Below are positions 1,150 to 24,487 of a stretch of 38,963 bases of DNA, piece after piece (the stretch's first letter is position 1; each line of letters begins with the position of its first letter). This DNA is from an uncultured Anaerolineaceae bacterium (GTDB lineage Bacteria; Chloroflexota; Anaerolineae; Anaerolineales; Villigracilaceae), in contig CAZAWS010000001.1 of the NCBI GenBank assembly GCA_964488755.1, positions 1 to 38,963 of the forward strand, written 5' to 3'. The notes under the pieces were generated by a model, which was not told the DNA's origin, did not search any database, and saw only the letters and a program-made list of their open reading frames with translations. Both the position numbers and the translations under genes were made by a program.

Positions 1150-1461
1150 ATCAATTGTCTCGTCTTAGGTTATTTCTATGTTTGGGACGATGGTTTCTGG
1201 AGAGTACGAAAGGAATTATATAATAGTTTGTCCCCTTCTGTGCGACTATCTTCTCTGCTTTTGGGCAGGGGTGGGCAGTGGGGTAGTAGAAGAGTGCGTT
1301 TTTTTGTTTACCGATTTGATTGTTTAGTTGCAGGTTTTAAGTAAGTGATGGTTCAGAGTCCGAAAACTTCTGTTTTGGGCTTCATAAAGTGCCAAAGTCT
1401 GGAGATTTTTTATCCCAATTTTGCAGGAAGGGGTAGTGCTTATTTAGGAATTGCCATCGTT

Positions 1462-3141: not shown

Positions 3142-3143
3142 AG

Positions 3144-6797: not shown

Positions 6798-7551
6798 ATT
6801 CAATTAGCTCCTGTGCCAAAATACGATATTGTTCGGCTCCGCGGGTATTGGATTTGTACTCGGTGATTGGCAAGCCAAGAATGGGGCTTTCGCGTAGTTT
6901 TGTATCTATTTCGATAATGCTTTTGAAGAGACCTTCGCCGAAGGTGTTTTCTAGCTGGGCTTGAATGGTGCGGTGTGATTTATTGCGACGGTCGAGCATG
7001 GTAATTAGGATGCGGTAGGCTAAGGGGGAGTTGTTGCTATCACGCACTTTTCGGACAAGTGACATCATATTTCGTAGGGCGTAGGCTGAGAAATATTCTG
7101 CTTGCGTGGGGATGATGAGTAGGTTGGACGCGTTTAGCGCGTTTAGTGTGACTGCGCCAAGTGCGGGGGGGCAATCGATGAGCACAAAATCGTATTTCAT
7201 TGGTTGGGATGCAAAAATGGCGTCTGTGAGGCGTGTGGCATAATTTAGATGAATGGGTAAGAGTTGTTCGGCGCGTTCCATTTTTTTGCTGGATGGCACA
7301 ATTTCTAGGTGGTTGATATTGGTTTTTTGCCAGACATTTTCTAGGGGGACGTTTTCAAGCAAAATATCACTTGAGGTTAACGCCGCCCCCCCCGGCTCGA
7401 AACCTACTGCTAGGGTTAGATTGGCTTGCGCGTCTAAATCTACTAGGAGGACTTGGTATCCTTTTTCTGCTAGGGCGGCACCAAGGGATAGGGTGGTGGT
7501 GGTTTTTGCTACGCCACCTTTTTCGTTCGAAATTGCGATTGTATAAGTCAT
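6766..7551 (-). CDS. ParA/Soj/MinD-family P-loop ATPase (orphan, no ParB partner in the window)
   Basis: 261 aa. The deviant Walker A is 'SNEKGGVAKTTT', A' is 'LLVDLDAQAN' and Walker B is 'FVLIDCPPALG'. It has an ATG start with GAGG upstream. Its 3' end overlaps the kinase start by 32 nt. Confidence 0.9.
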   Translation of the reverse strand: MTYTIAISNEKGGVAKTTTTLSLGAALAEKGYQVLLVDLDAQANLTLAVGFEPGGAALTSSDILLENVPLENVWQKTNINHLEIVPSSKKMERAEQLLPIHLNYATRLTDAIFASQPMKYDFVLIDCPPALGAVTLNALNASNLLIIPTQAEYFSAYALRNMMSLVRKVRDSNNSPLAYRILITMLDRRNKSHRTIQAQLENTFGEGLFKSIIEIDTKLRESPILGLPITEYKSNTRGAEQYRILAQELIEYVKESNRQPA

Positions 7552-9354: not shown

Positions 9355-9364
9355 AGCCATTTCC

Positions 9365-11017
9365 TTATTTTTCTTCAGCTAGAATTTCTGCATTTTGCGA
9401 TTCGTTTAGACGAAAAGCAATTTCTGGGCTATCTAAGATATTGGCTAATTCTTTAAGGGTGGTTTGAATAATTGTCTCCATACGCATTGATGTGCCAATT
9501 TTATTGGAGACTTCACCAATTAGTTGTTCTTTTGTTGCACGGCGTTGGCTATCATTGAGTAAGCGTGCATTTTCTAAAGCTAGTGCGGCTCTGTTGGTAA
9601 CAGATTCTATTAGTGCTTTGTTTTCTGCGTTAAGTGCAACTTCGCCTTGTTGAATTTTCAAAAGCCCTATTTCTGCACCATGCACGTTTACGGGGACTGA
9701 GAGTGTATTTTCTTCATCATCAGAAAATACGCTTGCCTGCTGAATGGGGTGTACGCTTTCGTTATAATAGCTATATCCATGCTGTGGTTGGGTGTTGGCA
9801 AGTTCGTTCCATGCTTGTTGCGTATATTGTTTGGATATTGCACGTGCTTCTTCTAGTGCGGCTTGCGTTATTTCTGCTTGGCGAGCGTTTTCTATTGCGA
9901 TAGAGACTTGGTTGCCTAAAGCTCTGAAAATTTCAAGATCGTTTTCAGAGAAAGCACCTTCTTCTTCGCTTTGCACATCTAAGACTCCGATAATTTTTGA
10001 GCCTATTTCTAAAGGAAGTGCCATTTCTGAGCGGGTGTTGGGGAGGTCGGGGTTGTTGAAGTAAGCGGCATCCTGCCCAACGTCAAGGGCGATGCGGGCG
10101 GTTCCATCGTAGGCAACACGTCCAACGATACCGCTGTGTCCCACTTCCAGTTGATGTTGACGGGCTAACATCCGTTTTCCACCTTCGCTATTTGCCGCTT
10201 TTAGTTGAGCAAATTTAGTATCTTTACTTAGGAGGAATATTCCAACGTGGTAAAAGTAAAAGTATTTGCTAATTAATGAGACAATTTTTGGCAAGAGTGT
10301 TTCCATATTTTGCACTAAGGCGATTGCTTTAGATGTTTCTGCTATAGCCAATAGTTGAATGGATTGCGTATTTAGCTCTGCTGTGCGCATATTGACACGT
10401 TCTTCTAATTCGTTTTGTAATGTTAAGAGTTCTTTATTACGTAAAAGAACTTCTTTTTCGCTTTTTTTTGTGAGAGATAAGGCATTATTTGTATTTTTTG
10501 TTGTAAGATAAATAACTACTGCTATGAGAATAAAGATGACTGATAAATCGCGAGCGAGATTGCCTATAGTGTCTAGGCTGGGGGTGATGGTGCCATTTTT
10601 CTCGGCGTAAACAAGCCCCCAGAGCATAAGGATACTAGAAATTGTAAAGAAAATAAAAATACGCGGGTTACTTAATAAGCTGGTTAAAAATATCAAAAGG
10701 ATATACACAATAAGTGAAGCATTGCGAATACCGTCACCATGCCACGCCATATAGGTCATGGCAATCCATGCTAAAGAAATTAAAAGAATAGTCGCTAGTT
10801 GCACCCTACCTGTTCGCATTAGCACTTGCATAACTATCGCGGTTAGAAATACGAAAATAAGTATGTTTCTAGAGGCAGGCTTGTCTTCAACTAAAATTAA
10901 TAAGCCAACTAAAAAAATAGTTGTATAAAGAATGGCATTAAGATATTGCGCCGCACGCATTTTCTCTTCATCTTCATAGATGGGAGGAGCAAGTATCTTT
11001 TTTATTGAATTAAGCAT
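9365..11017 (-). CDS. Membrane-anchored GAF sensor paralogue P2 (short class)
   Basis: 550 aa with a polytopic N-terminus. The GAF is 'FYHVGIFLLSKDTKFAQLKAANSEGGKRML...GIVGRVAY...LPNTRSEMALPLEIGSKIIGVLDVQS'. The tail is 'VPVNVHGAEIGLLKI...LALENARLLNDSQRRATKEQLIGEVSNKIG...TLKELANILDSPEIAFRL'. A 4-nt gap separates it from P1. Confidence 0.92.
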   Translation of the reverse strand: MLNSIKKILAPPIYEDEEKMRAAQYLNAILYTTIFLVGLLILVEDKPASRNILIFVFLTAIVMQVLMRTGRVQLATILLISLAWIAMTYMAWHGDGIRNASLIVYILLIFLTSLLSNPRIFIFFTISSILMLWGLVYAEKNGTITPSLDTIGNLARDLSVIFILIAVVIYLTTKNTNNALSLTKKSEKEVLLRNKELLTLQNELEERVNMRTAELNTQSIQLLAIAETSKAIALVQNMETLLPKIVSLISKYFYFYHVGIFLLSKDTKFAQLKAANSEGGKRMLARQHQLEVGHSGIVGRVAYDGTARIALDVGQDAAYFNNPDLPNTRSEMALPLEIGSKIIGVLDVQSEEEGAFSENDLEIFRALGNQVSIAIENARQAEITQAALEEARAISKQYTQQAWNELANTQPQHGYSYYNESVHPIQQASVFSDDEENTLSVPVNVHGAEIGLLKIQQGEVALNAENKALIESVTNRAALALENARLLNDSQRRATKEQLIGEVSNKIGTSMRMETIIQTTLKELANILDSPEIAFRLNESQNAEILAEEK

Positions 11018-11028
11018 GGCTTGTATTC

Positions 11029-13812
11029 CTATTTTTCTTCAGGAGAAAGTAGTTCAAAACTTACCTTGGGACTTCCTAGTGCTTGTCCTAATTCTTTTAC
11101 TGTGGTTTGTAAAATGGCATCTATTTGAGAAGAATTGCCTATTTTTGCTGAAATATCAGAAAGAATTGCCTCGCGTTGGGCTTTTCGCTGTGTTTCATCA
11201 AAATGCCTTGCACTGTCGAGAGCTACGCTGAGGTGCTCAGAGATTGCGGCGGTTATTTCAAGTTCTTCTGGTGTCCATGGTTTTTCATTTTCACCTTTGC
11301 GAATTTTGATACCACCTAGTATATACCCGCGGTTTTTGATGGGGATGATGGCTGTGCGTTTGTCATCTTCTAAGATTTTTCCTTCTTCTGTTATTTGTGC
11401 AAGGTTATTGTTTTTCTCCGATGCGCTAATTGGATGGGGTTTTCCTTTCTCATCAACAATAAATCTTGAAATGGTTTGGCTTTCTGTTAGTTCGCGCCAT
11501 GTTTTTTGGCTAAACTCACCGTAGGCTTTGCGCTCGGCTTTTAGTGCATCTTCTGATTTGGCGAGCAGTTCTGCGTTGTCAAGTGCTACTGCAACTTGGT
11601 CTACCATTGTTTGCAGAGGAATGATATTGCTTTTGTCAAATGCAGATTTCTCGGTGCTTTGGACTGTTAGTGCGCCAAGCACGCGTCCCCGAGACCGAAG
11701 TGGTAAGGCACTTTCAGAGTGGGTTTTTGGTAAATCGGGGTTTTTAAATTGAACAGCGTCTTCACCAATATCCAATGCTATGCGGGCTTGTTTATTTTCA
11801 ATACACCAACCGATCATTCCTTCGCCGATTTTAATTTTATGTTCTTTATCTAGCATTTTTTGCCCAGCTTTGCCGGTCGCAGCTTTGAGTACAGCTTGTT
11901 CATTTTCTTCATCAACTAGGAATAAACCCACATAATAGAAATTGAAGCGTTCCTTGATTATCTCTACAACTTCTTGGATGAGTGTATTTGTATCCAGCAT
12001 TTCGGATGCCGCTTGTGCTACCTTAGATGATGCTTCTAAATATGCGGTGCGTTGTTCTAGGGTTTGTGTGCGTTCTTCAATACGATGCTCTAGGGTGTTG
12101 ATGGTTTTGTTTAGGCGTGAGACGAGATCATTAAATGTGCGGGCTAGGGCACCGATCTCATCATCTGCTTCAATGGTTGCGCGGGCTTCTAGGTTACCTT
12201 TTGTAAATTCTTGTGCTGTGTTTTCCAACCGAATAAGGGGAGCTACCAAGATATTTGCCAAGCCAAAACTGGTAAAGACGGCTAAAATAATTAGGGCTAA
12301 AGATGAGATAACCATCCTACGAATTTGTTGTTGTACAGGGGCTAAAAAAATATCATTAGGTTGTGCAGATAGGATAAGCCAGGGGACAGTATTGAGTTGT
12401 GTTACCGCGCCAGAAACAGACTTGTCTGATTCTGTTTCATCGCTTGTGAAGTAGGGTGTCGTGACGAAATTAGTTAATCCTTCTTCTATTTTTGTGAAAT
12501 TATGCGATATTTCATTATCTTTTCGATATGCGGGAACAAGAAAGTTCTCTTTAAGGCTTTTAATTTCATCTGCGCTGGGGGAATAGATTGTTTTTCCAAT
12601 TAATTGAGGGCTTAAAGCATGGGCAAGAATAATATGGTTGCTGTCGAATAAGACTGAGAAAGAGCCTGCACCAGCAATGCTTTTTTCATTGACAATCATC
12701 TCTTGTAATGCCGAGGCACTATATTTGGCACGCAGAACGCCTAAGATACTGCCCATATCGTTATGAATGGGGGCACTGAAGAATAGGACACTTTCGTCTT
12801 CGTCTGGAAGGTATAGCACGGGTGAAATATAGCCTTTGCTAGAGTCAATTGGGCGTTGAAAATAATCTTGTTGGGATTCATCTTGACCAATTTGGGTTTT
12901 ATTTGAATCTATGATATTAATGCCGTTCACATCAAGAATTGCAAAAGAAAGAATATCGGTACTATTGCCACTTAAAGAAAAGAGAAGGTTTTGAACTTGG
13001 CTCTCTGTTGATGAATTTTTTCTTTCTTCTGGTGAGAGTAATAAATAGGAACTGATGTTTAAATATGTAGAAGTTGTTTCTACAAAGTTAAGATTGTATT
13101 TCAAAAAATTATCAATGTTTTTTGCAGAGAGTGATGCATTGGCGAGTAATTTCTCCTGTGCATTAGCGGTTATGGTATTGCGCATATTTAGACTAATAAA
13201 AGTAAAGGTAACGAGAACGATAGAGCTACTTAGGAAAAGAAAAGCGACAGCTAGTTTTGTACGTAGGGTATAAGAAGGATATTGTCTAAAAATGAGAACA
13301 AAAAAAACAAGAACGAAAAAACCTATGATATACGGTGATGCATCGTTATAAGCTACTAGGGGAGTGCGTTCAAATGGTTCTACAAGATAGAGAAATAGAA
13401 GATAGAAAACAACAGCCGCATTTCCGTACATGGCTTTTTTTGTTTCTGTAGAACTTAGGGTCATACTGGCTACACCAAAGGTAACGATACCACTTAGTAT
13501 AGCGAGCATAATATCTAAACCACTCGTTACGAGAGTTGTGATTAGCATAACCACATTGGTTGCGATAATCATTAGAATAACGGCTCTTTTGCCTTGTCCT
13601 TTACGAACAAGAAATGCAGAGAGTATGTAAATACCAGAGAGAATAGCTAATTGGACATTGGCATGGAAAAAGGTTATCGGTATTTCTGTAAGTGGTGAAA
13701 AATAATATAACGACGCAAAGGCAAGAATAATAGACATTGCTACAGCAACGAAAAAAGCATTTTTCTCTTGTTGAGGAGAAAATTGATGGGGGTGAGATGT
13801 GTTTTCTATCAT
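11029..13812 (-). CDS. Membrane-anchored GAF sensor paralogue P3 (long class: polytopic TM, double-Cache-like domain, TM, HAMP, GAF, tail)
   Basis: 927 aa. The Cache-like stretch is 'DYFQRPIDSSKGYISPVLYLPDEDESVLFFSAPIHNDMGSILGVLRAKYSASAL'. The HAMP is 'APLIRLENTAQEFTKGNLEARATIEADDEIGALARTFNDLVSRL'. The GAF is 'FYYVGLFLVDEENEQAVLKAATGKAGQKML...GMIGWCIE...LPKTHSESALPLRSRGRVLGALTVQS'. The tail is 'IPIKNRGYILGGIKI...ALDSARHFDETQRKAQREAILSDISAKIG...VKELGQALGSPKVSFEL'. Confidence 0.93.
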   Translation of the reverse strand: MIENTSHPHQFSPQQEKNAFFVAVAMSIILAFASLYYFSPLTEIPITFFHANVQLAILSGIYILSAFLVRKGQGKRAVILMIIATNVVMLITTLVTSGLDIMLAILSGIVTFGVASMTLSSTETKKAMYGNAAVVFYLLFLYLVEPFERTPLVAYNDASPYIIGFFVLVFFVLIFRQYPSYTLRTKLAVAFLFLSSSIVLVTFTFISLNMRNTITANAQEKLLANASLSAKNIDNFLKYNLNFVETTSTYLNISSYLLLSPEERKNSSTESQVQNLLFSLSGNSTDILSFAILDVNGINIIDSNKTQIGQDESQQDYFQRPIDSSKGYISPVLYLPDEDESVLFFSAPIHNDMGSILGVLRAKYSASALQEMIVNEKSIAGAGSFSVLFDSNHIILAHALSPQLIGKTIYSPSADEIKSLKENFLVPAYRKDNEISHNFTKIEEGLTNFVTTPYFTSDETESDKSVSGAVTQLNTVPWLILSAQPNDIFLAPVQQQIRRMVISSLALIILAVFTSFGLANILVAPLIRLENTAQEFTKGNLEARATIEADDEIGALARTFNDLVSRLNKTINTLEHRIEERTQTLEQRTAYLEASSKVAQAASEMLDTNTLIQEVVEIIKERFNFYYVGLFLVDEENEQAVLKAATGKAGQKMLDKEHKIKIGEGMIGWCIENKQARIALDIGEDAVQFKNPDLPKTHSESALPLRSRGRVLGALTVQSTEKSAFDKSNIIPLQTMVDQVAVALDNAELLAKSEDALKAERKAYGEFSQKTWRELTESQTISRFIVDEKGKPHPISASEKNNNLAQITEEGKILEDDKRTAIIPIKNRGYILGGIKIRKGENEKPWTPEELEITAAISEHLSVALDSARHFDETQRKAQREAILSDISAKIGNSSQIDAILQTTVKELGQALGSPKVSFELLSPEEK

Positions 13813-13906
13813 AAGTATTCTCTTATTTGGAGAAATTAGGACATTATCTTAATATCTTGGGGAAAAAACTTCCGAAGTTTAGTGCCTGAGTAGTTACCTT
13901 CTCTTT

Positions 13907-15565
13907 TTATTCTGCATCTATCCAGACTTCTGTTTCAGCATTCCCAAGAATTTTATGCAATTCGATTGCGGCAGCTTCAAGGACTTTTTCAATATCTAAG
14001 CTCTCGCGGATGCGGGCAGAGCTTTCGCTAATAATATGTTCACGTGCGCCACGCCGCCGGCTATCTTCAAAAAGTCGGGCACTTTCTAGTGAAATGCTAA
14101 GGTGTTCGGACAGTGTCTCGGCTAGGGCTATTTCTTCTGTTGTCCAGATGCCGTGCTTAGGATCTTTTTTGATTTGAATGTTACCAAGCACTTTCCCATG
14201 ACTTTTAATAGGGAGTAAAGCAGTCCCGTCTTCTTTGACTAATACACTTTCGAGGGACGTGTTTTTTTCATTTGCGATGCTGTAAGTTTCTCCATCTGTG
14301 TTGATTCCATAGGCGGGGATGGCGCCAGATTTTATTAGTTTCTTCCATGCGCTATAGCTCAACTCTCCATAGGCTAGGTGTTCAGATTCTAGAGCGGCTT
14401 CACTTTGTGCAAGCAGTTCTGCGTTATCAAAGGCGATGCCAATTTGGTCTGCCATTGTTTGTAGGGTGGTAATAATTTCTGATGAAAAGGCATTTTTTTC
14501 TTTACTTTGCACGGTAATAACGCCCAAAATACGTCCACGAGAGCGAAGAGGAATAATTGCTTCAGATTGTGTTTTGGGTAGATAGGGGTTTTGGAACTCA
14601 ACAACATCTGTTCCTACTCCTGTAGCAATGTGTGCTTTATTTTCTTTGATTGTGCTCGCTATTATGCCGTCTTCAAGGGGATATTTATGCTTTTGTCTGA
14701 GCATTATTTTTCCTGCATCACCAGATCCAGCCTTTAGCATTATCCATGTATTGTCGCTATTTATAAGAAAAAGCCCGACATAATAAAGATTAAAATTCTC
14801 TTTAACTAATTCTACAATTTCTTTTGATAGTTTGTCTGTATCGGTAAAACTTGCTGCGACTTGGCTTATTTCAGCGGCACCTTTGAGATAGGAAGACTGG
14901 GTTTCTAGTTTGCGTGTGTTTTTATCTAGTTCTTCAACTTGTTCTTCTAACTTATTGCTTAAGTTTTTAAGCCTGATATTGGTTTCCGTTGCGTCTTTGA
15001 GGCGTTCTTTTTTTGTATTTTCTTGGAAGACAGAGGCTATAATTAATCCGATGCCTAAAAATAAAAGAGAAAGTATATCTCTGATATAGTCTCCGCCAGT
15101 TGTGGGAATCAAGATGAGTGAAATGGCGATTATGTCAACCAGAATTAAGGCGATGAGACTAGAGGATGTAAATAAAATACTACCAATAATAAAGGCGAGT
15201 GGGAAATTTGCGAAAAGTGTTGATGTAACGTCAGTGACCCCTCGCATTAAAGAGCTTAGGGTGACTAGCGATATGGTGCCAACAAGAATGATGCTTCCCC
15301 AAGTATAATGACGGCTTCGGCTAGCAAGATAAGCAAATATAAATACAACTGTAGACGTAAGAATAATCAGGAGAGTTGATAAATCGCCTTGACTAGCAAA
15401 AACAGAAACAATCCCCATCAATGTCCAGATAACCGCCACAATAGAAAGAATGGCAGAAAAGCGCGCTTTGCGTTGCGCTCCAATTCTTTGAATAGAAGGA
15501 TGTGGGCGAATCAGCTTTTCAAAGAAGGTTGTTTTATCTTGCGTTATTTCTTCTGAATTAGTCAT
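13907..15565 (-). CDS. Membrane-anchored GAF sensor paralogue P4 (short class)
   Basis: 552 aa with a polytopic N-terminus and a coiled coil 'LKNLSNKLEEQVEELDKNTRKLETQSSYL'. The GAF is 'LYYVGLFLINSDNTWIMLKAGSGDAGKIML...LPKTQSEAIIPLRSRGRILGVITVQS'. The tail is 'LPIKSHGKVLGNIQI...SLESARLFEDSRRRGAREHIISESSARIRESLDIEKVLEAAAIELHKILGNAETEVWI'. The start overlaps the P5 stop by 8 nt (ATGACTAA). Confidence 0.93.
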   Translation of the reverse strand: MTNSEEITQDKTTFFEKLIRPHPSIQRIGAQRKARFSAILSIVAVIWTLMGIVSVFASQGDLSTLLIILTSTVVFIFAYLASRSRHYTWGSIILVGTISLVTLSSLMRGVTDVTSTLFANFPLAFIIGSILFTSSSLIALILVDIIAISLILIPTTGGDYIRDILSLLFLGIGLIIASVFQENTKKERLKDATETNIRLKNLSNKLEEQVEELDKNTRKLETQSSYLKGAAEISQVAASFTDTDKLSKEIVELVKENFNLYYVGLFLINSDNTWIMLKAGSGDAGKIMLRQKHKYPLEDGIIASTIKENKAHIATGVGTDVVEFQNPYLPKTQSEAIIPLRSRGRILGVITVQSKEKNAFSSEIITTLQTMADQIGIAFDNAELLAQSEAALESEHLAYGELSYSAWKKLIKSGAIPAYGINTDGETYSIANEKNTSLESVLVKEDGTALLPIKSHGKVLGNIQIKKDPKHGIWTTEEIALAETLSEHLSISLESARLFEDSRRRGAREHIISESSARIRESLDIEKVLEAAAIELHKILGNAETEVWIDAE

Positions 15566-18287
15566 TTTTCTTCTCTGTATCTAACCATATTTTTGTTTCA
15601 GCACTACCAAGTGCTTTGTGTAATTCTCTAGTAGCGGCTTTTAGTACACTTTCTATATTGAGTGTTTCTCGCATTTTGGCAGATGCCGCACCGATAACAC
15701 GCTCACGTGCTACGCGGCGTTGACTTTGGTCAAAGAGTCGTGCGCTTTCGAGTGAGATGCTAACTTGTTCGGCTAAGGTTTTTGCTAATGCCAACTCTTC
15801 TTTTGTCCAGTGGCCTTTTTCTTTTTCTTTGCGTAGCTTTACACCACCTAAGACATGTCCGTGAATCTTTATGGGGAGTGTTACGGTTAGCTCATCATCT
15901 TGGATGGTTGTTTTACTTTGATGCGTTGATGCACTTTCTGTTTTTTCAAGCGGATAAACGCTGTTCGGGGCATCAGAGAGATAGTGAGGGATATTCGTTT
16001 GGTGGAGCAAGGCAGTCCAATCTTCTTGGCTTAATTGCCCGTAGGCTTTGCGTTCTGCTTTGAGAGCCACTTCACTTTTGGTAAAGAGTTCTGCGTTATC
16101 AAGGGCAATTGCGATTTGGTCTGCCATTGTTTGTAATGTGGCGATGATTTCTGGTGTAAAGGCTGATTCTTCACTGCTCTGAATTGTCAGTGCGCCAAGC
16201 ACGCGTCCCCGAGAGCGAAGCGGGAGTGCACCTTCGGAGCGGGTTTCTGGTAAAGTTGGGTTGTCGAAGCGAGTTGCGTCCTCGCCTACGTCTAGGGCTA
16301 TCCGAGATTGGGCATTTTCTATGCTCCAGCCGATCATACCTTCGCCAATTTTGAGTTTGTGCTTGCGTGCTAACATTATTTTTCCTGCTTCACCTGTACC
16401 AGCTTCTAAGTTTGCCCATTTGTTTTTGTTGTCGACAAGGAAAAGCCCAACATAATATAGGTTGAAGCGTGCTTTGATTAACCCTACGACTTCTTCTATT
16501 AGTTTGGTGGTATTTGTTATAGAGGCAATTCTTTGGCTAACCTCTACAGAGCTTTCGAGGTATGTGGCTTGAGCTTCAAGTTTTTGGGTGCGTTCAGCAA
16601 TAATGTCATCTTGGTTTTTTAGGGTCGTGTCAAGATCTTTAGCTAGGGTATTTAGTGTGGATCCAAGCTTTCCTAGTTCATCTGGTGGGAGATTTTCAAC
16701 ACGAGCAGAGAGATTTCCTGCGATTTGCTTTTCTGCAATTGCAGTGAGATTTTGGACAGGACGTAATACTACATAAGTGATTGCACCGCTTAAAATAATT
16801 AGGCCAATAAATGCTAATAGGGCGGCGGGGATTAAAACAGCGCGTCTACTCTGGTTGATTGTCTCTAACGTTTTTGCTCGGGGCTGGATGATTTCTACAA
16901 TGCCAATCACTCGTCCTTCGTAAGCCAACATGGGAGCAATAAGTACAGCGTATTCTTCGTTTTCAAGAGAGATAAATACTATTTCTGGTATTTGTGTTTC
17001 TAAAACACGGTTATATACATCGGGAGAAATAGAAAGCGAAATTAAATCTTCATTCGAGCTGGCATAATGAGAAAGTTCTGCTGTAGGTGTTTCGTAGTCA
17101 AAATAATGTTTTAATCCTGAAATTTGTGCAGCTTCGTAAGTTATCCATAGGTTATAGTCTGCTGTGGTACGCGCTGCCAAATTATCTACAAAGGTTTGAT
17201 CGTAATCTAAGCCTACTTCAATCATGCCTATGAACTCGCCATCTCTCCAGAGTGGTGAAATGCTACGCACGCCTATACGATCGGTACCAACTTCTACCCC
17301 AGCTACAGTTTCTTGTGTTTCTAAAGCGGTGGCGGCGGTATAACGGTAAGTAATATCATCGCCAAATCTGTTTTTATTATGAACACGAAGAAAAACTGTG
17401 CCATCAGGATTTTCAATATAGAGATGCCGGATATTATTTTCCTCTTTTAGCGTTTCAAAAATCGGAGAGAGGAGTGCGTATAAAGCAGTTCTGTCTTTAG
17501 CAAGATATAAGTCTTTGATATCGTCTCTGTCGGCATAACTTAAAGAAAGAGCGGATGATGCAAGAGCTTGACTATCTGTATAGTTGTTATAGGATTCGTA
17601 AAGAAATTCGAGATGCTTTATTTCTGCTGTTTCACTGAGTTCTCTGGAAATACGTAAATTTATACCAGTTTGGAAGAAAACAACGATACTAATTACTATA
17701 AATATGATGGAAAGTAGCTTCGGTCTGATGTGTCTATACCACACTTGCCATAGAAGCAAAACAAAGAAGGCTAAGCCCATTATGCCAATAATGAAAGGGG
17801 CAAAACGCTCAAGCCCGCTTGTTCCTAATTGGAAGGGTGGGTTCAGTACATCTGCTAGTACGGAAATTGTTATGGCAGTGCTTCCCACCCATATAGCCAA
17901 AGAGCGAGTTTTTTGTGGAAGTATCCAGCGATAGAAAAAGAAGGAAGTAAGGAGAATATGTACAGAAGCAATGAGAGAAAAATCTTGGAGGATAATTGAG
18001 GTTATTGTGGGAGGCAGGATATTGATGAGATACATCAATGCAGTACCAAATATATAGCGTCCTTGACGAATTAAAGCGATGCCTATAAAGCCTGAAATCC
18101 AAGCAAAGCCAGTTATGATCATTAATAGAGAATCTGTCCAATAAAAATAACCTTGTTGAATAACTATATAGATAGAAAAACCAAAGAATATCAAATAGAC
18201 AATGCTACCGACAAGCCCTGTCCAAATTCCAAGGCGGGGATTTTTTTCTTCTTGAGAAGGAGGAGGTGATGCTAAATTATCGTTCAT
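15558..18287 (-). CDS. Membrane-anchored GAF sensor paralogue P5 (long class: polytopic TM, Cache_3/Cache_2-like domain, TM, HAMP, GAF, tail)
   Basis: The extracytoplasmic stretch 'IRHLYIENPDGTVFLRVHNKNRFGDDITY' resembles the Cache_3-Cache_2 motif. The HAMP is 'RPVQNLTAIAEKQIAGNLSARVENLPPDELGKLGSTLNTLAKDL'. The GAF is 'LYYVGLFLVDNKNKWANLEAGTGEAGKIML...GMIGWSIE...LPETRSEGALPLRSRGRVLGALTIQS'. The ORF-track start at 18329 is a TTG. The ATG at 18285-18287 forms an ATGA overlap with the P6 stop and is preferred. Confidence 0.92.
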   Translation of the reverse strand: MNDNLASPPPSQEEKNPRLGIWTGLVGSIVYLIFFGFSIYIVIQQGYFYWTDSLLMIITGFAWISGFIGIALIRQGRYIFGTALMYLINILPPTITSIILQDFSLIASVHILLTSFFFYRWILPQKTRSLAIWVGSTAITISVLADVLNPPFQLGTSGLERFAPFIIGIMGLAFFVLLLWQVWYRHIRPKLLSIIFIVISIVVFFQTGINLRISRELSETAEIKHLEFLYESYNNYTDSQALASSALSLSYADRDDIKDLYLAKDRTALYALLSPIFETLKEENNIRHLYIENPDGTVFLRVHNKNRFGDDITYRYTAATALETQETVAGVEVGTDRIGVRSISPLWRDGEFIGMIEVGLDYDQTFVDNLAARTTADYNLWITYEAAQISGLKHYFDYETPTAELSHYASSNEDLISLSISPDVYNRVLETQIPEIVFISLENEEYAVLIAPMLAYEGRVIGIVEIIQPRAKTLETINQSRRAVLIPAALLAFIGLIILSGAITYVVLRPVQNLTAIAEKQIAGNLSARVENLPPDELGKLGSTLNTLAKDLDTTLKNQDDIIAERTQKLEAQATYLESSVEVSQRIASITNTTKLIEEVVGLIKARFNLYYVGLFLVDNKNKWANLEAGTGEAGKIMLARKHKLKIGEGMIGWSIENAQSRIALDVGEDATRFDNPTLPETRSEGALPLRSRGRVLGALTIQSSEESAFTPEIIATLQTMADQIAIALDNAELFTKSEVALKAERKAYGQLSQEDWTALLHQTNIPHYLSDAPNSVYPLEKTESASTHQSKTTIQDDELTVTLPIKIHGHVLGGVKLRKEKEKGHWTKEELALAKTLAEQVSISLESARLFDQSQRRVARERVIGAASAKMRETLNIESVLKAATRELHKALGSAETKIWLDTEKKND

Positions 18288-19957
18288 TCTTTTTCCTCCG
18301 TGCTTTGTCTTTCGTTGGCGTTTAGCCAAACCTCTGCCTCTGAAATTTTTAAGGCATTGCGAAGTTCTTGGGCGGCTATCTTTAAAACCCCTTCAATTTC
18401 AAGTGTTTCTCTCAGGCGGGTTGCTGTTTGCCCGATAATATGCTCTCGCGCTACGCGGCGTTGACTTTGGTCAAAGAGCCGTGCGCTTTCGAGTGCTACA
18501 CTAATTTCTTCTGAGAGTGTTTCTGCTAGTTCGAGCTGCGATTTTGTCCAGACACCGCGTTTGGGGGATTTGTGTAATTTTATGCCGCCAAGAATGGTGC
18601 CGCGCATTTTTATGGGGACGATAGCTGTATAGCCATTATCTTCTAAAATAAGATGCTCTTGTGGGGTTTCATTTATAATAGCTTCTTTTGATATATGCAC
18701 TTTATCTAAGGAATCAGCAGTATATTTAGGCAGTTTTTTGTTTTGCAATAAGGTGACCCAATCTTCTTGGCGTAATTGCCCGTAGGCTTTTCGTTCAGCT
18801 TCTAAGGCAAGTTCGCTTTTTTCAAACAGCATGGCATTATCTAATGCTATTGCAACTTGGTCTGTCATTATCTGGAGCGTGGTAATAATTTCATTGGTAA
18901 AAGCTACGGGTTGGGTACTCTGTATGGTGAGGGCACCCAAGACGCGCCCACGCGAGCGAAGCGGAATTGCTCCTTCGGAGCGGGTTTTTGGCAAATAAGG
19001 ATTTTCAAAATGGACGGCATCCTCGCCTACATCCAAAGCAATTCGAGATTGTGCGTTTTCAATAGACCAGCCAATCATCCCTGATCCAATTTTAAGGCGA
19101 TGTTTTGCCTTAAGCATTTCTTTGCCCGCTTCTCCCGTTCCAGATTTTAAGATTGCCCATTTATTTGTCTCATCCACAAGAAAGAGACCCACATAATATA
19201 AATTGAACTTCTCTTGAATAAGTTGCACAATTTTTGAAATTAATATATTGGTATCTGTAACTGAAGCAATGCTTCGGCTAATCTCAGCAGAGGTTTCTAA
19301 ATATGAAGCTCGTTCCGCCAATGCCGATGCTCTTTGTTCTAGCTCTATTTCTAGCCCAAGATTTTTTTGGGCTAGCTCGGTTTCATGCTGGGCGTTTTTG
19401 AGTGCTTCATTTAATTTTTTTATAGCAAGGTTTAAAACAATAGCCGCTAATAAAGATGCCGCGGCAAAAATAATTGCAGGTTGTGCGCTGGGGGTATAGG
19501 TAGGAGCGGGGAGTTTTCCCGTGTTTTCTGCCCAAAGTAGAGCAAAAACAATCAAGGTATTGAGCGTGCTTGTAACATACATAGCATTGCGGCTAATAAT
19601 TACGCCGCTAATAATGCTTAGAAGAATGTAAAAAGAAAGAGAAGAAACCCTAATTGTTCCTCCCGCAGCAATCGCTGCGGTCAAGATGATTGTGACGATT
19701 GTTATGAGCGAGTATGTGGCTGGTTTTAGATAGCCCAATTTCAAAATAATATGTATAAAAAAGAATAAAAAGAAAAGAATAACAACAGGAATGACCATTG
19801 CCATTATTGCGTTGCCAATTATGAAAGCTATAAGAATAAGAAGAATCAACAAATAACCATTTACCAAAATGGTATTAAGCAATTCTGCTGAACGAGTTTT
19901 TTCTTCATCATCTTCAAATATAGGCGCAGAAAAGAAGTTTTTGATTGAATTAAGCAT
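18284..19957 (-). CDS. Membrane-anchored GAF sensor paralogue P6 (short class)
   Basis: The GAF is 'LYYVGLFLVDETNKWAILKSGTGEAGKEML...GMIGWSIE...LPKTRSEGAIPLRSRGRVLGALTIQS'. The tail is 'VPIKMRGTILGGIKL...ALESARLFDQSQRRVAREHIIGQTATRLRETLEIEGVLKIAAQELRNAL'. The ATG at 19955-19957 gives 'MLNSIKNFFSAPIFEDDEEK', matching the P1/P2 N-termini. It has GGAG 10 nt upstream and an 8-nt overlap (ATGCTTAA) with the P7 stop. The track start at 19990 adds 11 non-conserved residues. Confidence 0.92.
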   Translation of the reverse strand: MLNSIKNFFSAPIFEDDEEKTRSAELLNTILVNGYLLILLILIAFIIGNAIMAMVIPVVILFFLFFFIHIILKLGYLKPATYSLITIVTIILTAAIAAGGTIRVSSLSFYILLSIISGVIISRNAMYVTSTLNTLIVFALLWAENTGKLPAPTYTPSAQPAIIFAAASLLAAIVLNLAIKKLNEALKNAQHETELAQKNLGLEIELEQRASALAERASYLETSAEISRSIASVTDTNILISKIVQLIQEKFNLYYVGLFLVDETNKWAILKSGTGEAGKEMLKAKHRLKIGSGMIGWSIENAQSRIALDVGEDAVHFENPYLPKTRSEGAIPLRSRGRVLGALTIQSTQPVAFTNEIITTLQIMTDQVAIALDNAMLFEKSELALEAERKAYGQLRQEDWVTLLQNKKLPKYTADSLDKVHISKEAIINETPQEHLILEDNGYTAIVPIKMRGTILGGIKLHKSPKRGVWTKSQLELAETLSEEISVALESARLFDQSQRRVAREHIIGQTATRLRETLEIEGVLKIAAQELRNALKISEAEVWLNANERQSTEEKE

Positions 19958-21569
19958 TGTTTTCTTTCTCCTCGCCCTCATAATTTTCATAAAGCCAAAT
20001 TTCGCTTTTATCTATATCTAAATTCCTTCTCAACTCTTGTACGGCTGTTTTTAATACTTTTTCGATATCCAAGTTTTCTCGTACTCGGCTTGAAGTTTTG
20101 GCAATAATTTCTTCTCTTTTAGCGCGCTCTTGCGCCTCTTGATAAAGCCGTGCACTATCTATAGCGGTTTCTAAACGAGAAGCTAAAATACTTAATAACT
20201 CTTTCTCTGCGGCAGTCCAAACCCTGTTTTTAGCTTTACGGGCATCAATATGCCCAATAATTTTGCCGCGCACTTTAATAGGGACTGCCTCAGTTTCGGC
20301 TTTTTCTTCTTGTGGCGTATAGGTCTCTGAAGGCATATGGCTTAAGCCTGCGGAATCTCGTCTATAACTTCCATACGATTGTTCTGCAATAAATTCTCGC
20401 CAAGCTCTTTGAGCAATTTCGCCATAAGCGCGGCGTTCGGTCTCTAAAGCACTTTCTTTTTGAGCCAATAAAATGGCATTTTCAAGCAAAACGGCAATAT
20501 GGTTGGCAAGCATTTGCAAAACAGAAATTCGTTCTGCGCCAAAAGCCTGTAAGTCATTGCTTTCTAAGAAAAGAGCACCGATTGTTTTTTCTTGTCCCTG
20601 CATAGGGATTGCGAGATAAACCTGATTTTCATCGTCTGGATTAAGATTTGTTTCTGCGTATGCTTTTTTGTCGGAGATAGCTCTGTTGAGCAATTGATTT
20701 TCTTTGGACGAGAGCGATTCACGCGTGTTTTGGGCTTGGGATGCCCTTTTTTGACGGGATGCCTGATAAAGGGCATCTTCTGCATCAAAAAGAAAGACAG
20801 ACGACATGCTCAGCCGTAGCGTATTATTAAAGAGCACAGGCACACGATCAATAATCGTATCGTAATCGGTAAAGATTGCTAATTCTTGGCTGATACTTGC
20901 AAATGCTTCTAAGGTTTTGGAGCGTTTTTCAGCTATATCGTGTTGTTCTTTGAGGGTGATGTTTTGTCGCTCTGCTGTTTCCATCAGACTAAAATTATGT
21001 TCAATTGCTTTATTTAGACTGCTCAAAAGATTAGATGTTGTCAAAGTGATAATAACAGCAACAATAGCTGCCGATATAGCCGTGCCTACCCAAAGAGTGT
21101 TCGCAATAGGACTAAAGGTAGGTGATGGAATAATGTGGGCGTTAAAAAGATACGCTACTAAAGCCCATATTAGTAGAAAAGCAACGCTAAAAATGATACC
21201 AGCTCTTCGCCCTACAAAAACGGTTGCTAAAAATATAGCCAGAAAAAACCAAGCTCTAGAGTCCCCAGCTGTAGAAAAATCTAAAGCAGATTGAATACCA
21301 ACAATAAAAATAATTATGGCTAGTATTGTGGCTCGCACTTTAGGAGAGAGGCGTGGGTAGTAAGCGGCAAAGAGAAGAGATACAAGAATTACTGTGTATC
21401 CTACAAGTGTAAGTATGTCTAAAGACGCGTAGTTAGCCGCCCAATTAGCAATATAGGCAATGACCGCGGCTATGCTGATAATCCTGGTTAAGAAATTGAT
21501 GTTTTTTTCTCGCCAAGCTTGCAAGGTATTTGTGTTTTTGGGGGGACGGGATGTTGAGAAATTTGTCAT
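19950..21569 (-). CDS. Membrane-anchored GAF-like sensor paralogue P7 (short class, divergent first GAF)
   Basis: 539 aa with a polytopic N-terminus. The first GAF-like region, 'LSMSSVFLFDAEDALYQASRQ...YLAIPMQGQEKTIGALFLESND...LANHIAVLLENA', lacks the family 'LPxT[RH]SE' and 'G[IM][IV]G' motifs. The tail is fully conserved: 'VPIKVRGKIIGHIDA...AIDSARLYQEAQERAKREEIIAKTSSRVRENLDIEKVLKTAVQELRRNL'. An ATGA overlap joins it to the P8 stop. Confidence 0.9.
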   Translation of the reverse strand: MTNFSTSRPPKNTNTLQAWREKNINFLTRIISIAAVIAYIANWAANYASLDILTLVGYTVILVSLLFAAYYPRLSPKVRATILAIIIFIVGIQSALDFSTAGDSRAWFFLAIFLATVFVGRRAGIIFSVAFLLIWALVAYLFNAHIIPSPTFSPIANTLWVGTAISAAIVAVIITLTTSNLLSSLNKAIEHNFSLMETAERQNITLKEQHDIAEKRSKTLEAFASISQELAIFTDYDTIIDRVPVLFNNTLRLSMSSVFLFDAEDALYQASRQKRASQAQNTRESLSSKENQLLNRAISDKKAYAETNLNPDDENQVYLAIPMQGQEKTIGALFLESNDLQAFGAERISVLQMLANHIAVLLENAILLAQKESALETERRAYGEIAQRAWREFIAEQSYGSYRRDSAGLSHMPSETYTPQEEKAETEAVPIKVRGKIIGHIDARKAKNRVWTAAEKELLSILASRLETAIDSARLYQEAQERAKREEIIAKTSSRVRENLDIEKVLKTAVQELRRNLDIDKSEIWLYENYEGEEKENNA

Positions 21570-24487
21570 TTTCTTTTCTCCTCATCACGCTCATCAGCAT
21601 TTAGATGGATAGAAAGTTCTTCTAAATCAAGCAATTTATAAAGTTCCTCTGTTGCTAAGCGAATTACTGATTCTACATTCATGGTTTCTCTCATTCGGTT
21701 AGAAATTTCGCCGACAACACGTTCGCGGTCTGCTTGTTTCTTTGTTTCATCAAAAAGGCGTGCGCTATCCATGGCTCTGCTTATTTCGGCTGTTAGCTTT
21801 CTTGCTAAGCTTAGGTCTTTTTGATTCCACTTAAGATCATGTTCTGATTTCGAGAGTTGAATGGCACCTACAGATTCTCCGCGTACCATAATGGGGATGT
21901 TGGCAACGAGATCGTTTTCATTGAGCAATACTTGGTTTTCTTGCATCGCCTGCTCAAGTTTTTGGTCAGCCTCTGTTACAAGTGGATAGATACTGCCATC
22001 GGCACTACTTCTGTAACCATAATTGGTTGATTGGTGAATAAGTTCTTTCCAGCCAAGTTGGCTTTGTTCTCCATAAGCACGCTGGGCTGTTGCGAGGGCT
22101 TTTTGGGATTCATCGAAGAGACGGGCATTTTCGATGGCTATTGCTATTTGATCGGCTAAAACTTGCAAAGAGACAATATCTGCTTCGTTAAAGGCTTCAC
22201 TTTCTATGCTTTGAATATCGAGCGCACCAAAAATTTTGCCACCTGCGGTGAGTGGGAGTGCCATTTCGGAGCGGGTGTCGGGGAGCAGGGGGTTGTTGAA
22301 GTAAGCGGCATCATGCCCAACGTCAAGGGCGATGCGGGCTTCTCCTGTCGCAGTGACGTAGCCGACAATCCCTTCTGCGCCTACTTCTAATTTATGCGCG
22401 CGGGCTAACATTCTACGTCCACCTTTGCTATTTGCGGCTTTGAGGATGGCGTATTTTCCGTAGGAATCAACGAGAAAGATGCCAGCATGATAGAAACCAA
22501 ATTCCGCGCTAATTAGGTTGGTGGTTTGTGCAAGTAGTTCGTCTAGGTTACGTAAAGATGCGGCTGCTTTGCCAACTTCAACTGCGGCACGAAGTTGGCG
22601 GGTATTTCGCTCTAAGGCTTGGGTGCGTTCGGCGATGCGAGTTTCTAATGTGGTTACGAGGGTGTCTATTTGGTCTGCCATACTGTTGAAGGCGTAACCA
22701 AGTATACCTATTTCATCTTCTGTACCAATATCAGCACGAGCGTCTAGGTTTCCCTGTGCTACTTGATTGGCGGTGTCTGTGAGGCGTACAAGTGGGGAGA
22801 TGAGGTATTGACTTCCATAATAAGCCGAAACTGCCGCGGCGATGGCGATAAGAACGGCTAAGAATATATTTATATTACTTTGTTGGGAGATATAGGCGTT
22901 GTAATTGTCGAGGTCTTGAGATACAACTACGATCCAAGAGAGGGATTCTTCTTCAACATCGGCAGTTGCTATTATGTCTAGGGGAGTATTGGAGTGAACT
23001 TCTCGCGGGAAGGCTTGGGCTTCAAAAACGGGGTCGGTGTGGCGGTTGCGCAAGTGCTCGTCAAAATTGGGGACATCTAATGAAAGCTGGGCAGTGCTTC
23101 CAACGGGAAGGATATGGGCTATTTGTAGGGGAGTGATTACATTTGTAGTTAAGGGCGTTATAGATGTCAAGTTTAGGTCTATATCTTGGCTATTTGCGGC
23201 AATGATATAAACAGATGCAGGGTCTTCGGGGTCTATAGCTTGTTTGCTGACATTTTGCTCTGCAAGCAATGCCGCAAAAACGGTTTTATTGCCGCTCCCC
23301 TCTATTTCTATATAGTTGTTAATATATTTTTCTATGGCAGATATACTATATTTTGCACGAAGAACACCTATTGCTTCACCTGTAGTTTTGTGGAAAATAG
23401 GTGCGCTAAAATAGATAAAAAGATTATTGGTGCTGTCTCTGCTGATATCCGAAACAAAGGGTGCTCCGGTTTCTATGGCTTGTACAAAATAATCTGTGTC
23501 ACCTTCATTGTTGCCACGATTTTCTAAAAATGTATCTAGCACATTTTTGCCGGATATATCTAAAATTGCGTAGGAGTTAATATTCGCAATATCTTTTCGC
23601 CTTATTGAGCGAAGGCTGTCTAGCGTGTTATTCTCTAATTCGCTGTGTTCAAGATCTCGAACACCTTCAAGGGATGATAGATATTCAGAAAAAAGTGGAT
23701 TTTGACCGTCTGCGTTGATTATGGTTTTTGTAGATTGAAGAAAGACGTTTATATCATCTGCGAGAAAAGTGGCTTTTATGCGCATTTCATCATCTAAGCG
23801 GGGGCTTAAAGTTGCTTTTAAAGATCTAGTTCCAGCTACACTTAGAAGAACGCTGGGAAGAACAACAAAGAAAATGATTACAATTGTGATTTTAGGTGAA
23901 ATCAGTAGATATTGTCTCTGTAAATAGAGCGCAACTAGATAAATGAACGCAACAGCGATTACCAATACTGTGGTTGCCCTTACCAATAGTTCTGCATTTT
24001 CAGCTAACTGACGATAAATAGCTAGAGATGATGAGGCGGCAAGGATGTCGAAAACAAGATAAAAAGAGCTAAGAAGAAGCCCTAAGATTAATGTGCGATT
24101 AAAGTATTTCGCTTCTAAAGTTAGCAAACCGATTAGTGGGACGGCAGTAATTGCTAGAAAACCAAGAAGTATACTTAAGCCAGCTGTGAATGCATTGCGA
24201 AACGCTAAAGTGATAGCAAAGGAAATTAGCAGAATCACAATCCCTTTTCTTTTTTCTCCATTTCGTATGACGATCGCACTGACGATAGTCATAATAAAGA
24301 AAAGAAAAACAACAATGGTGTCGGCAAAGGAAATCAACGCTTGCGTTTCCAGACTTATACGAAGAGAAACAATGAAGCTGATCAATGAAGCGACAGTAAA
24401 TAATATAGCCGTAGCAAAGGCATTACGCGTTTGTCTGCTAATCGTCATATCTTCTGGTGTTTGTTGTTTATAATTTTTCTCGCTCAT
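21566..24487 (-). CDS. Membrane-anchored GAF sensor paralogue P8 (long class: polytopic TM, double-Cache-like domain, TM, HAMP, GAF, tail)
   Basis: 973 aa. The Cache-like stretch is 'DTDYFVQAIETGAPFVSDISRDSTNNLFIYFSAPIFHKTTGEAIGVLRAKYSISAI'. The HAMP is 'SPLVRLTDTANQVAQGNLDARADIGTEDEIGILGYAFNSMADQI'. The GAF is 'FYHAGIFLVDSYGKYAILKAANSKGGRRML...GIVGYVTA...LPDTRSEMALPLTAGGKIFGALDIQS'. The tail is 'IPIMVRGESVGAIQL...AMDSARLFDETKKQADRERVVGEISNRMRETMNVESVIRLATEELYKLL'. Confidence 0.93.
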   Translation of the reverse strand: MSEKNYKQQTPEDMTISRQTRNAFATAILFTVASLISFIVSLRISLETQALISFADTIVVFLFFIMTIVSAIVIRNGEKRKGIVILLISFAITLAFRNAFTAGLSILLGFLAITAVPLIGLLTLEAKYFNRTLILGLLLSSFYLVFDILAASSSLAIYRQLAENAELLVRATTVLVIAVAFIYLVALYLQRQYLLISPKITIVIIFFVVLPSVLLSVAGTRSLKATLSPRLDDEMRIKATFLADDINVFLQSTKTIINADGQNPLFSEYLSSLEGVRDLEHSELENNTLDSLRSIRRKDIANINSYAILDISGKNVLDTFLENRGNNEGDTDYFVQAIETGAPFVSDISRDSTNNLFIYFSAPIFHKTTGEAIGVLRAKYSISAIEKYINNYIEIEGSGNKTVFAALLAEQNVSKQAIDPEDPASVYIIAANSQDIDLNLTSITPLTTNVITPLQIAHILPVGSTAQLSLDVPNFDEHLRNRHTDPVFEAQAFPREVHSNTPLDIIATADVEEESLSWIVVVSQDLDNYNAYISQQSNINIFLAVLIAIAAAVSAYYGSQYLISPLVRLTDTANQVAQGNLDARADIGTEDEIGILGYAFNSMADQIDTLVTTLETRIAERTQALERNTRQLRAAVEVGKAAASLRNLDELLAQTTNLISAEFGFYHAGIFLVDSYGKYAILKAANSKGGRRMLARAHKLEVGAEGIVGYVTATGEARIALDVGHDAAYFNNPLLPDTRSEMALPLTAGGKIFGALDIQSIESEAFNEADIVSLQVLADQIAIAIENARLFDESQKALATAQRAYGEQSQLGWKELIHQSTNYGYRSSADGSIYPLVTEADQKLEQAMQENQVLLNENDLVANIPIMVRGESVGAIQLSKSEHDLKWNQKDLSLARKLTAEISRAMDSARLFDETKKQADRERVVGEISNRMRETMNVESVIRLATEELYKLLDLEELSIHLNADERDEEKRK

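Follow-up and report, generated by a model that had tools for sequence, protein, structure and literature searches.

Why should eleven neighboring membrane receptors with different sensory inputs all end on what looks like the beginning of another domain? This question is raised by a stretch of 38,963 nucleotides from an uncultured Anaerolineaceae bacterium (contig CAZAWS010000001.1 of assembly GCA_964488755.1), which was studied as a whole and is referred to here as the window. It carries eleven paralogous receptor genes, numbered P1 to P11 in order of ascending coordinates, whose products share a C-terminal tail of about 108 aa. Judged by sequence comparison, this tail is an ordinary GAF-to-GAF junction of poly-GAF proteins that has been cut just after strand 1. 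The last 50 to 63 aa, referred to here as the stub, are a junction fragment (linker helix, helix 1, and strand-1 segment) retained as a terminal module, and we regard this identification as very probable. The stub is a selected feature under purifying selection and forms the C-terminal end of a large family of Anaerolineae membrane receptors, which have varied inputs (dCache, MASE11, or a bundle of five transmembrane [TM] helices) and no output domain.

The eleven genes are all located on the minus strand between positions 7729 and 31976 and are co-directional and packed tightly or overlapping:

7729-9360, minus strand: paralogue P1, with the tail at 7729-8037 and the stub at 7732-7881
9365-11017, minus strand: paralogue P2, with the tail at 9365-9712 and the stub at 9368-9556
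11029-13812, minus strand: paralogue P3, with the tail at 11029-11355 and the stub at 11032-11199
13907-15565, minus strand: paralogue P4, with the tail at 13907-14224 and the stub at 13910-14068; the full-length AlphaFold replicate
15558-18329, minus strand: paralogue P5 (923 aa), with the tail at 15558-15884 and the stop codon at 15558-15560
18284-19990, minus strand: paralogue P6, with the tail at 18284-18628 and the stub at 18287-18472
19950-21569, minus strand: paralogue P7, divergent, with a MASE11 domain, the tail at 19950-20297, and the stub at 19953-20141
21566-24487, minus strand: paralogue P8, with the tail at 21566-21907 and the stub at 21569-21751
24503-26158, minus strand: paralogue P9, with the tail at 24503-24829 and the stub at 24506-24673
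26168-28093, minus strand: paralogue P10, with the tail at 26168-26497 and the stub at 26171-26341
28086-31976, minus strand: paralogue P11, with four GAF domains, the tail at 28086-28433, and the stub at 28089-28277, which follows a complete GAF domain

As called, the P5 start (TTG at 18329) overlaps the upstream gene by 46 nt, and the P6 start does so by 41 nt; the true starts may be internal ATG codons, which would give overlaps of 4 to 8 nt like those at the other junctions.

The input domains of these proteins are diverse, with dCache_3 and HAMP in P5, dCache_1 and HAMP in P11, MASE11 in P7, and, in both P1 and P4, a five-TM bundle that Pfam does not recognize. Compared in pairs, the eleven paralogues are on average identical at 19% in the input regions, 42% in the first GAF domain, 23% in the linker and the front half of the next module, 31% in the hairpin and last helix, and 33% in the stub. 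The C-terminal ~125 residues of all eleven can be aligned nearly without gaps, and the consensus pattern quoted in the initial annotation, which had described the tail as common to all paralogues, is essentially correct. Within the tail, positions G14, R50, and E88 are invariant, and P5 (here proline 5 of the tail), L51, E62, and L89 are at least 90% conserved. Conservation of the stub had been claimed even for P7, and this holds: despite its MASE11 N terminus and divergent GAF domain, P7 is 37% identical to P5 over the tail versus 28% over the wider region.

P5 was used as the exemplar to describe the anatomy of the tail; bases 15561-15884 encode its last 108 residues, and the elements are as follows:

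15732-15887, minus strand: first half of the tail, residues 815 to 866, with the hairpin of strands 4 and 5 and the last helix (α5) of a reduced GAF module (mini-GAF), according to Pfam GAF and the AlphaFold model
15666-15731, minus strand: inter-domain linker helix of the stub, D867 to E888, continuous with α5, according to the AlphaFold model (helix 264-309) and the stub column statistics
15612-15656, minus strand: equivalent of GAF helix 1 in the stub, I892 to A906 (helix 313-327 of the AlphaFold model), matching helix 1 of solved cyanobacteriochrome (CBCR) GAF domains
15579-15599, minus strand: strand-1-equivalent segment of the stub, E911 to D917 (ETKIWLD), aligning to the DRVxV β1 of solved GAF domains
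15558-15578, minus strand: last six residues (TEKKND) and stop codon, with an 8-nt overlap into the next paralogue

In the AlphaFold model of a 344-aa P5 construct, the hairpin corresponds to strands 236-243 and 246-254, and the following helix starts at residue 264. The last ~57 aa of the tail thus consist of an inter-domain linker helix of ~22 residues, which bears a near-invariant A59/R61/E62 signature, followed after a 3-residue break (T889 to N891) by the helix 1 equivalent and the strand-1 segment. This last segment is amphipathic and is predicted to be coil in the monomer, with a predicted local distance difference test (pLDDT) score of 42 to 56. The proteins had been thought to stop just after the strand; the strand-1 segment is indeed homologous, but a further 2 to 15 residues separate it from the stop in the eleven proteins.

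The hairpin and helix close the mini-GAF in P1 to P10 and a complete GAF domain in P11. According to AlphaFold, the mini-GAF is a four-strand sheet flanked by two long helices, and Pfam GAF models pick up no more than its last third. It recurs in the sensors (P5 region 15888-16100), at the N terminus of the kinase described below (residues ~1 to 124), and in giant poly-GAF proteins, with a period of ~127 to 134 aa versus ~172 aa for a full GAF domain and with a conserved AYGELSxxAWxxLL helix.

What, then, is the tail related to? Its first half had been read as the ending of a GAF domain, and this is well supported: Pfam GAF matches tail residues 2 to 45 at profile positions 92 to 133 of 133 (E value of 4e-7), matches to GAF_2, GAF_3, and SpoVT_C (which has a GAF-like fold) agree with this, and with PF01590, PF13185, and PF13492 as the reference entries, the C-terminal hairpin and last helix of a GAF domain are present. 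The module that is closed in this way is a full GAF domain in P11 only and the reduced four-strand version in the other ten paralogues. For the last ~40 residues, which had been read as a GAF opening, an alignment of the tails with the N termini of the full GAF domains, as proposed in the initial annotation, proved to be colinear. With hhalign, the eleven stubs and 12 N-terminal segments of the family's full GAF domains align at positions 3-50 and 2-49, respectively, over 48 columns (E value of 1.5e-4, probability of 52%, and identity of 6%). The reading as a GAF opening had left out the linker helix of ~22 residues that is also part of the stub.

A stub-only profile searched against all PDB sequences gave 12 matches with E values from 4.8e-10 to 5e-3, and the first unrelated match had an E value of ~0.3. 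All 12 are GAF domains of the CBCR/phytochrome type, and all are matched in their first ~40 residues (within positions ~3 to 58), for example at 13-53 in 2LB5, 3-41 in 6BHN, 14-54 in 6OZA, 5-45 in 6UV8, 2-40 in 6XHG, and 23-58 in 3W2Z; the match in 6OAP is to the helix leading into the GAF domain. With 35 to 45% identity to CBCR-type N termini, the stub is closer to the N termini of CBCR/phytochrome-type GAF domains than to the GAF domains of its own proteins. The stubs alone gave no usable Pfam hit, with a single GAF match at an E value of 0.19; as helix 1 is hardly represented in the Pfam GAF models, this speaks neither for nor against homology.

A profile of the eleven whole tails was then compared with 1.84 billion representative sequences and matched 82,153 proteins at an E value of ≤1e-3. 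The top 150 matches are giant poly-GAF proteins of 1,140 to 3,952 aa, each of which contains 7 to 21 full-length tail matches with a period of ~172 aa, equal to one GAF domain; because of this number and spacing, the tail can be recognized as a generic GAF-to-GAF junction. Consistent with this, the profile spans the inter-GAF junction of 8W26 at residues 152 to 242 (independent E value of 1e-11). Of the 150 giant proteins, which contain up to 21 GAF junctions, 27 end in a full tail, and others end in kinase-sized C-terminal regions; the only one whose source is named comes from Anaerolineales.

The stub shares homology with helix 1 and strand 1 at the N terminus of GAF domains, yet it is a fragment and not a GAF domain, as the fold is incomplete: the sheet of strands 1 to 5/6 and the pocket with helices 2 to 4 are missing after the stop. 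Likewise, only ~45 N-terminal residues of the CBCR/phytochrome class are present, without the bilin-binding cysteine and pocket, and because the bilin-binding domain body is absent, there is no chromophore site in the stub.

A partial domain at the end of a protein is an oddity that could arise from recent truncation, a frameshift, or a gene-calling error, and apart from this oddity nothing speaks for a nonfunctional remnant or artefact. The same stop position is used in all eleven paralogues and in hundreds of homologues from independent assemblies, and the following gene begins at the stop or immediately downstream of it. Furthermore, the ratio of nonsynonymous to synonymous substitution rates (dN/dS), computed for nine orthologue pairs with 74 to 91% identity from a syntenic array in another Anaerolineales genome (metagenome-assembled genome BB38; locus L001), is 0.127 for the stub (bootstrap range, 0.088 to 0.186). 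The hairpin and last helix have a value of 0.109, and the sensor/TM region has one of 0.272; for the segment that starts at GAF helix 1 and stops at the tail, which comprises GAF1, the linker, and the front half of the mini-GAF, the value is 0.136. Decay or artefact is refuted by the shared stop and the dN/dS values and can for practical purposes be dismissed; the initial annotation had rightly argued for function.

The terminal stubs also differ from the internal junctions to which they are related. A set of 209 terminal stubs is markedly more conserved (lower column entropy) than 147 internal junctions taken from the same loci, with the higher conservation found at A59, R61, E62, K/R71, R73, L82, A85, E88 (199 of 209), L89, and L93. 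In addition, hydrophobic residues occupy positions 98, 100, and 102 in the strand segment of the terminal stubs, with polar ones between them, unlike a buried strand 1, in which all positions are hydrophobic.

The 120 proteins most similar to the cytoplasmic region of P5 are from Anaerolineae, mostly of 550 to 600 aa, and annotated as "GAF domain-containing proteins"; in all but two the stub is terminal, with at most a short disordered polar extension after it. In total, the stub ends hundreds of Anaerolineae proteins. The distribution was further studied by a locus scan with a 7-sequence tail alignment and one genome per species, which yielded 75 loci. In ~63 of these, the open reading frame (ORF) stops 0 to 53 aa past the tail. 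The tail is thus mostly C-terminal but, in answer to a point raised in the initial annotation, not always so, as it also occurs at internal junctions of poly-GAF proteins and kinases. Stub-terminated ORFs were found in Anaerolineales, Thermoflexales, Ardenticatenales, Promineifilaceae, Ornatilinea apprima, and Candidatus Villigracilis, and all such loci are from Chloroflexota except L032. The latter is a 1,095-bp contig binned as Candidatus Omnitrophota with a tail nearly identical to those of the Anaerolinea loci L020 and L031, and this outlier is probably a binning error. Matches in Betaproteobacteria, Verrucomicrobiota, Archangium, and a few Chloroflexota are internal junctions that continue into a GAF or HisKA domain.

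What might such a terminal module do? AlphaFold monomer models were obtained for the 344-aa P5 construct and for full-length P4. In both, the stub is modeled as a long helix, a break of 2 to 3 residues, a 15-residue helix, and then low-confidence coil. GAF1 is entered in a similar way in these models, by a long helix, an equivalently placed break, helix 1, and then strand 1; the strand is formed there and not in the stub, so that the strand 1 previously assigned to the stub was not borne out by the models. A fold search with the model retrieved GAF and tandem-GAF structures and nothing specific to the stub. No packing of the stub onto the preceding module was seen in the two monomer models, in which the stub is predicted to be a free helical extension with a floppy end. 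Mutual information, calculated from ~210 to 280 related sequences, recovered the expected contacts within the hairpin and between hairpin and helix, and several pairs join the RETL(D/N) turn with the strand segment within the stub; no covariation between the stub and the mini-GAF was detected in this set. This pattern hints at a small helix-turn-helix-strand unit that is complete in itself, whether formed within one chain or between the chains of a dimer, and not at completion of the mini-GAF in cis. Packing of the stub on the mini-GAF in cis was rejected on two counts, the lack of stub/mini-GAF covariation and the full-length P4 model, which brought no gain in confidence in the stub.

These data could also be accommodated if the stub were a structural cap, that is, a remnant of the native junction that steadies the last GAF helix and the homodimer spine and has no partner; the receptors might then exert their effect by way of the GAF modules, which could, for instance, buffer a ligand or act laterally on neighbors. 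In both monomer models the stub simply prolongs α5, the covariation is confined within the stub, and inter-GAF helices form dimer spines in solved tandem GAF structures (PDE2A and PDE5A) that are among the fold matches. However, a cap would need neither the near-invariant charged residues R61, E62, and E88 nor an amphipathic end that is conserved across several Anaerolineae orders. It would also leave unexplained why receptors with elaborate inputs have no output, and the fixed association with one soluble kinase, described below, would not be accounted for. We therefore consider a mere cap to be rather unlikely, though worth keeping in mind.

The genes downstream of the array are central to the remaining possibilities:

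6766-7551, minus strand: ParA/MinD-like ATPase (AAA_31), between the last sensor and the kinase, in conserved synteny
3144-6803, minus strand: soluble hybrid histidine kinase (mini-GAF, GAF, two PAS, GAF, HisKA, HATPase, and two REC domains), downstream of the array and the candidate common partner
6264-6584, minus strand: kinase residues 74 to 180, a tail module that is the closest in-operon relative of the sensor tails (53.4 bits, profile positions 2 to 108) and served as an internal control

The tail module of the kinase continues directly into a Pfam GAF_3 domain at residues 150 to 289. Almost all Anaerolineae loci have stub-terminated ORFs arranged in tandem and in one direction, up to ten of them per 20-kb locus, and in about two dozen of the scanned loci the last sensor is followed by genes for a ParA-like ATPase, a hybrid kinase, and a protein referred to here as PLP-REC. 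The ParA-like ATPases of these loci are 43 to 92% identical to that of the window, and many of their genes start within ~100 nt of the stop of the last sensor. PLP-REC is followed by an EamA transporter gene in eight loci. This order is found at 199-7551 in the window and in loci L003 to L044, for example at 10417-16652 in the Ornatilinea apprima locus (L040). The kinase in this position is soluble, with GAF/PAS domains and two receivers, and PLP-REC is a threonine-synthase-like pyridoxal phosphate (PLP) enzyme with an N-terminal zinc ribbon and a fused receiver. The ParA-linked kinases share a peptide at the extreme N terminus, MSKKxLNNRLDNLFxDL (residues 1 to 25, 6729-6803 in the window; loci L003 to L067), which precedes mini-GAF and PAS-like domains alike. 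Short basic N-terminal peptides of partner proteins contact ParA-type ATPases, and the kinase peptide resembles these.

Could the kinase, or another protein, complete the stub? It had been suggested that the stub is completed in trans, and in this case helix 1 and strand 1 would insert into a partner GAF domain that lacks them to give a split GAF. The stub does retain residues typical of the N terminus of a complete GAF domain (the E88-L/V/I pair and an SLD-type turn), and kinases of close relatives begin with a GAF domain of which only the C-terminal part, residues 67 to 124, is detectable by hidden Markov models (HMMs). However, when all ORFs of the window and the 75 related loci were scanned with a full-GAF HMM, no genuine protein starting with a GAF domain minus helix 1 and strand 1 was found, only contig-edge fragments or kinase N termini. 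The kinase N terminus is itself probably complete, as 66 residues precede its hairpin, just as in the complete mini-GAF of the sensors. Moreover, strand 1 is a central strand of a GAF domain and would be hard to donate in trans. With no completing protein found in the window or the related loci, this suggestion did not hold up, and trans-completion seems very unlikely.

The kinase also invites comparison of the stub with the first helix of a dimerization and histidine phosphotransfer (DHp)/HisKA domain, in which case the receptors would be pseudokinases that have lost the histidine and heterodimerize with the real kinase. By eye, SAKMRETLN in the stub resembles the H-box SHELRTPLN of the window kinase after a 7-residue shift, and the tail has a weak match to an NCBIfam GAF-kinase model over the GAF-to-DHp region. 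This idea was rejected: none of the eleven stubs matches HisKA even at an E value of ≤10, all significant matches are to GAF N termini, and in poly-GAF proteins with kinase ends the match to the tail profile stops at about position 60. In addition, there is one helix after the break, no second hairpin helix before the stop, and no conserved histidine. A degenerate DHp helix is accordingly highly improbable.

In light of this, the reading that we cautiously favor, and to which we give slightly less than an even chance, is that the stub is part of a shared dimeric output and docking end that couples many receptors to one kinase. The receptors would act as helical dimers, in which the stub lengthens the α5 signaling helix and then folds as a small helix-turn-helix, with its amphipathic end segment placed back against its own turn. 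Because paralogues with divergent inputs share one conserved end and one downstream kinase, this end may serve as the common output and docking surface of the family and signal the GAF state to a partner that all receptors share. The likeliest partner would be the single soluble hybrid histidine kinase that is encoded with the ParA-like ATPase after the arrays in the two dozen loci, so that many receptors would feed one kinase, as chemoreceptors feed CheA. A docking function of the stub taken by itself, which is suggested by its conservation and gene context, is somewhat less likely than not, in contrast to the very probable identity of the stub as a junction fragment.

Several observations weigh against this reading. 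The pLDDT of the stub is 42 to 70, with the strand formed in neither model, and the covariation set was analyzed with no phylogenetic correction. The first GAF junction of the kinase is its best match to the tail profile, and is fully spanned, in 11 of the 21 kinases examined; the remaining ones (including those of L018, L020, and L038 to L040) start with a PAS-like domain, and their first junction stops short of the stub positions. Because about half of the kinases have such a PAS-like N terminus, there is no sign of a matching surface common to all of them. Finally, the link between sensors and kinase is drawn from gene neighborhood and indicates association, not interaction.

A more elaborate proposal, by analogy with chemoreceptor arrays, is that the stub is the plug of a many-to-one architecture. 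Up to a dozen output-less receptors would dock on one hybrid kinase, either by a mixed helical bundle or by strand/helix complementation with the first GAF junction of the kinase, the ParA-like ATPase would position the kinase via its N-terminal peptide, and the pathway would end in the receiver-controlled PLP enzyme. Such a GAF-based analogue of the chemoreceptor arrays is an attractive but distinctly unlikely scheme in this full form.

A literature search returned no description of this receptor family, the stub module, or the operon. Partial terminal domains are usually dismissed as decay or annotation noise; here, an element of ~50 residues is selected, phylum restricted, and diagnostic of a large receptor family, whose members have sophisticated inputs, no recognizable output, and no annotation other than "GAF domain-containing protein." Its association with a hybrid kinase, a ParA-like ATPase, and a receiver-PLP enzyme provides a testable hypothesis. 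If docking is true, this would be a novel means of connecting many receptors with a single kinase and an example of a domain fragment that can be recruited as an interaction module; if the stub is a cap only, it would be a modest structural footnote on GAF arrays. While the partial domain alone is a modest curiosity, arrays of output-less receptors with one ParA-associated kinase are likely to be the main draw for signaling specialists.

Among the closest known systems are the inter-GAF junctions of PDE2A (1MC0/3IBJ), PDE5A (3MF0/3LFV), CyaB2 (1YKD), and a cyanobacterial kinase fragment (8W26), which have the same order of elements as the tail, namely, a strand hairpin, α5, a continuous linker helix, helix 1, and strand 1. 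In contrast to these junctions, the chain here stops after the strand-1 segment with no next domain, and the terminal stubs have a set of residues that are more strongly conserved. The first ~40 residues of CBCR/phytochrome-type GAF domains (2LB5 [NpR6012g4], 6BHN, 6OAP, 6OZA/B, and 3W2Z [AnPixJg2]) share with the stub the motif RE..I..I..KIR.SLD.E.IL.T...E.R..L...RV.V, but the stub lacks the bilin-binding body and its hosts are Anaerolineae, not cyanobacteria.

The S-helix, which is located between two signaling domains and has a central ERT signature (Anantharaman, Balaji and Aravind 2006, PMC1592074), resembles the stub in that both are conserved helices of ~40 residues that follow the sensory domain of a dimeric receptor and have polar side chains at core-like positions. 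Nonetheless, the stub does not qualify as an S-helix: it lies at the very C terminus, so that no domain follows, and in place of E-R-T, terminal stubs have R61-E62-R/Q63 and then a hydrophobic residue. A true ERT-type S-helix is present elsewhere in these receptors, in the linker from HAMP (or the last TM helix) to GAF1 (e.g., IAERTQKLE, IEERTQTLE, or AERTQKLE); in P5 this signature is in the region of 16580-16640, residues ~570 to 600.

Lastly, the likeness to systems in which many receptors serve one kinase (chemoreceptor/CheA arrays and accessory membrane co-sensors of histidine kinases) is a functional analogy only; Pfam scans of six array proteins and of the ParA-like, PLP-REC, and EamA products revealed no methyl-accepting chemotaxis protein signaling domain, CheA, or CheW. 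Within this limit, they are alike in that paralogous membrane receptors with divergent inputs share a conserved cytoplasmic end beside a single soluble kinase, and some chemoreceptor clusters include a ParA-like ATPase, as is the case here.

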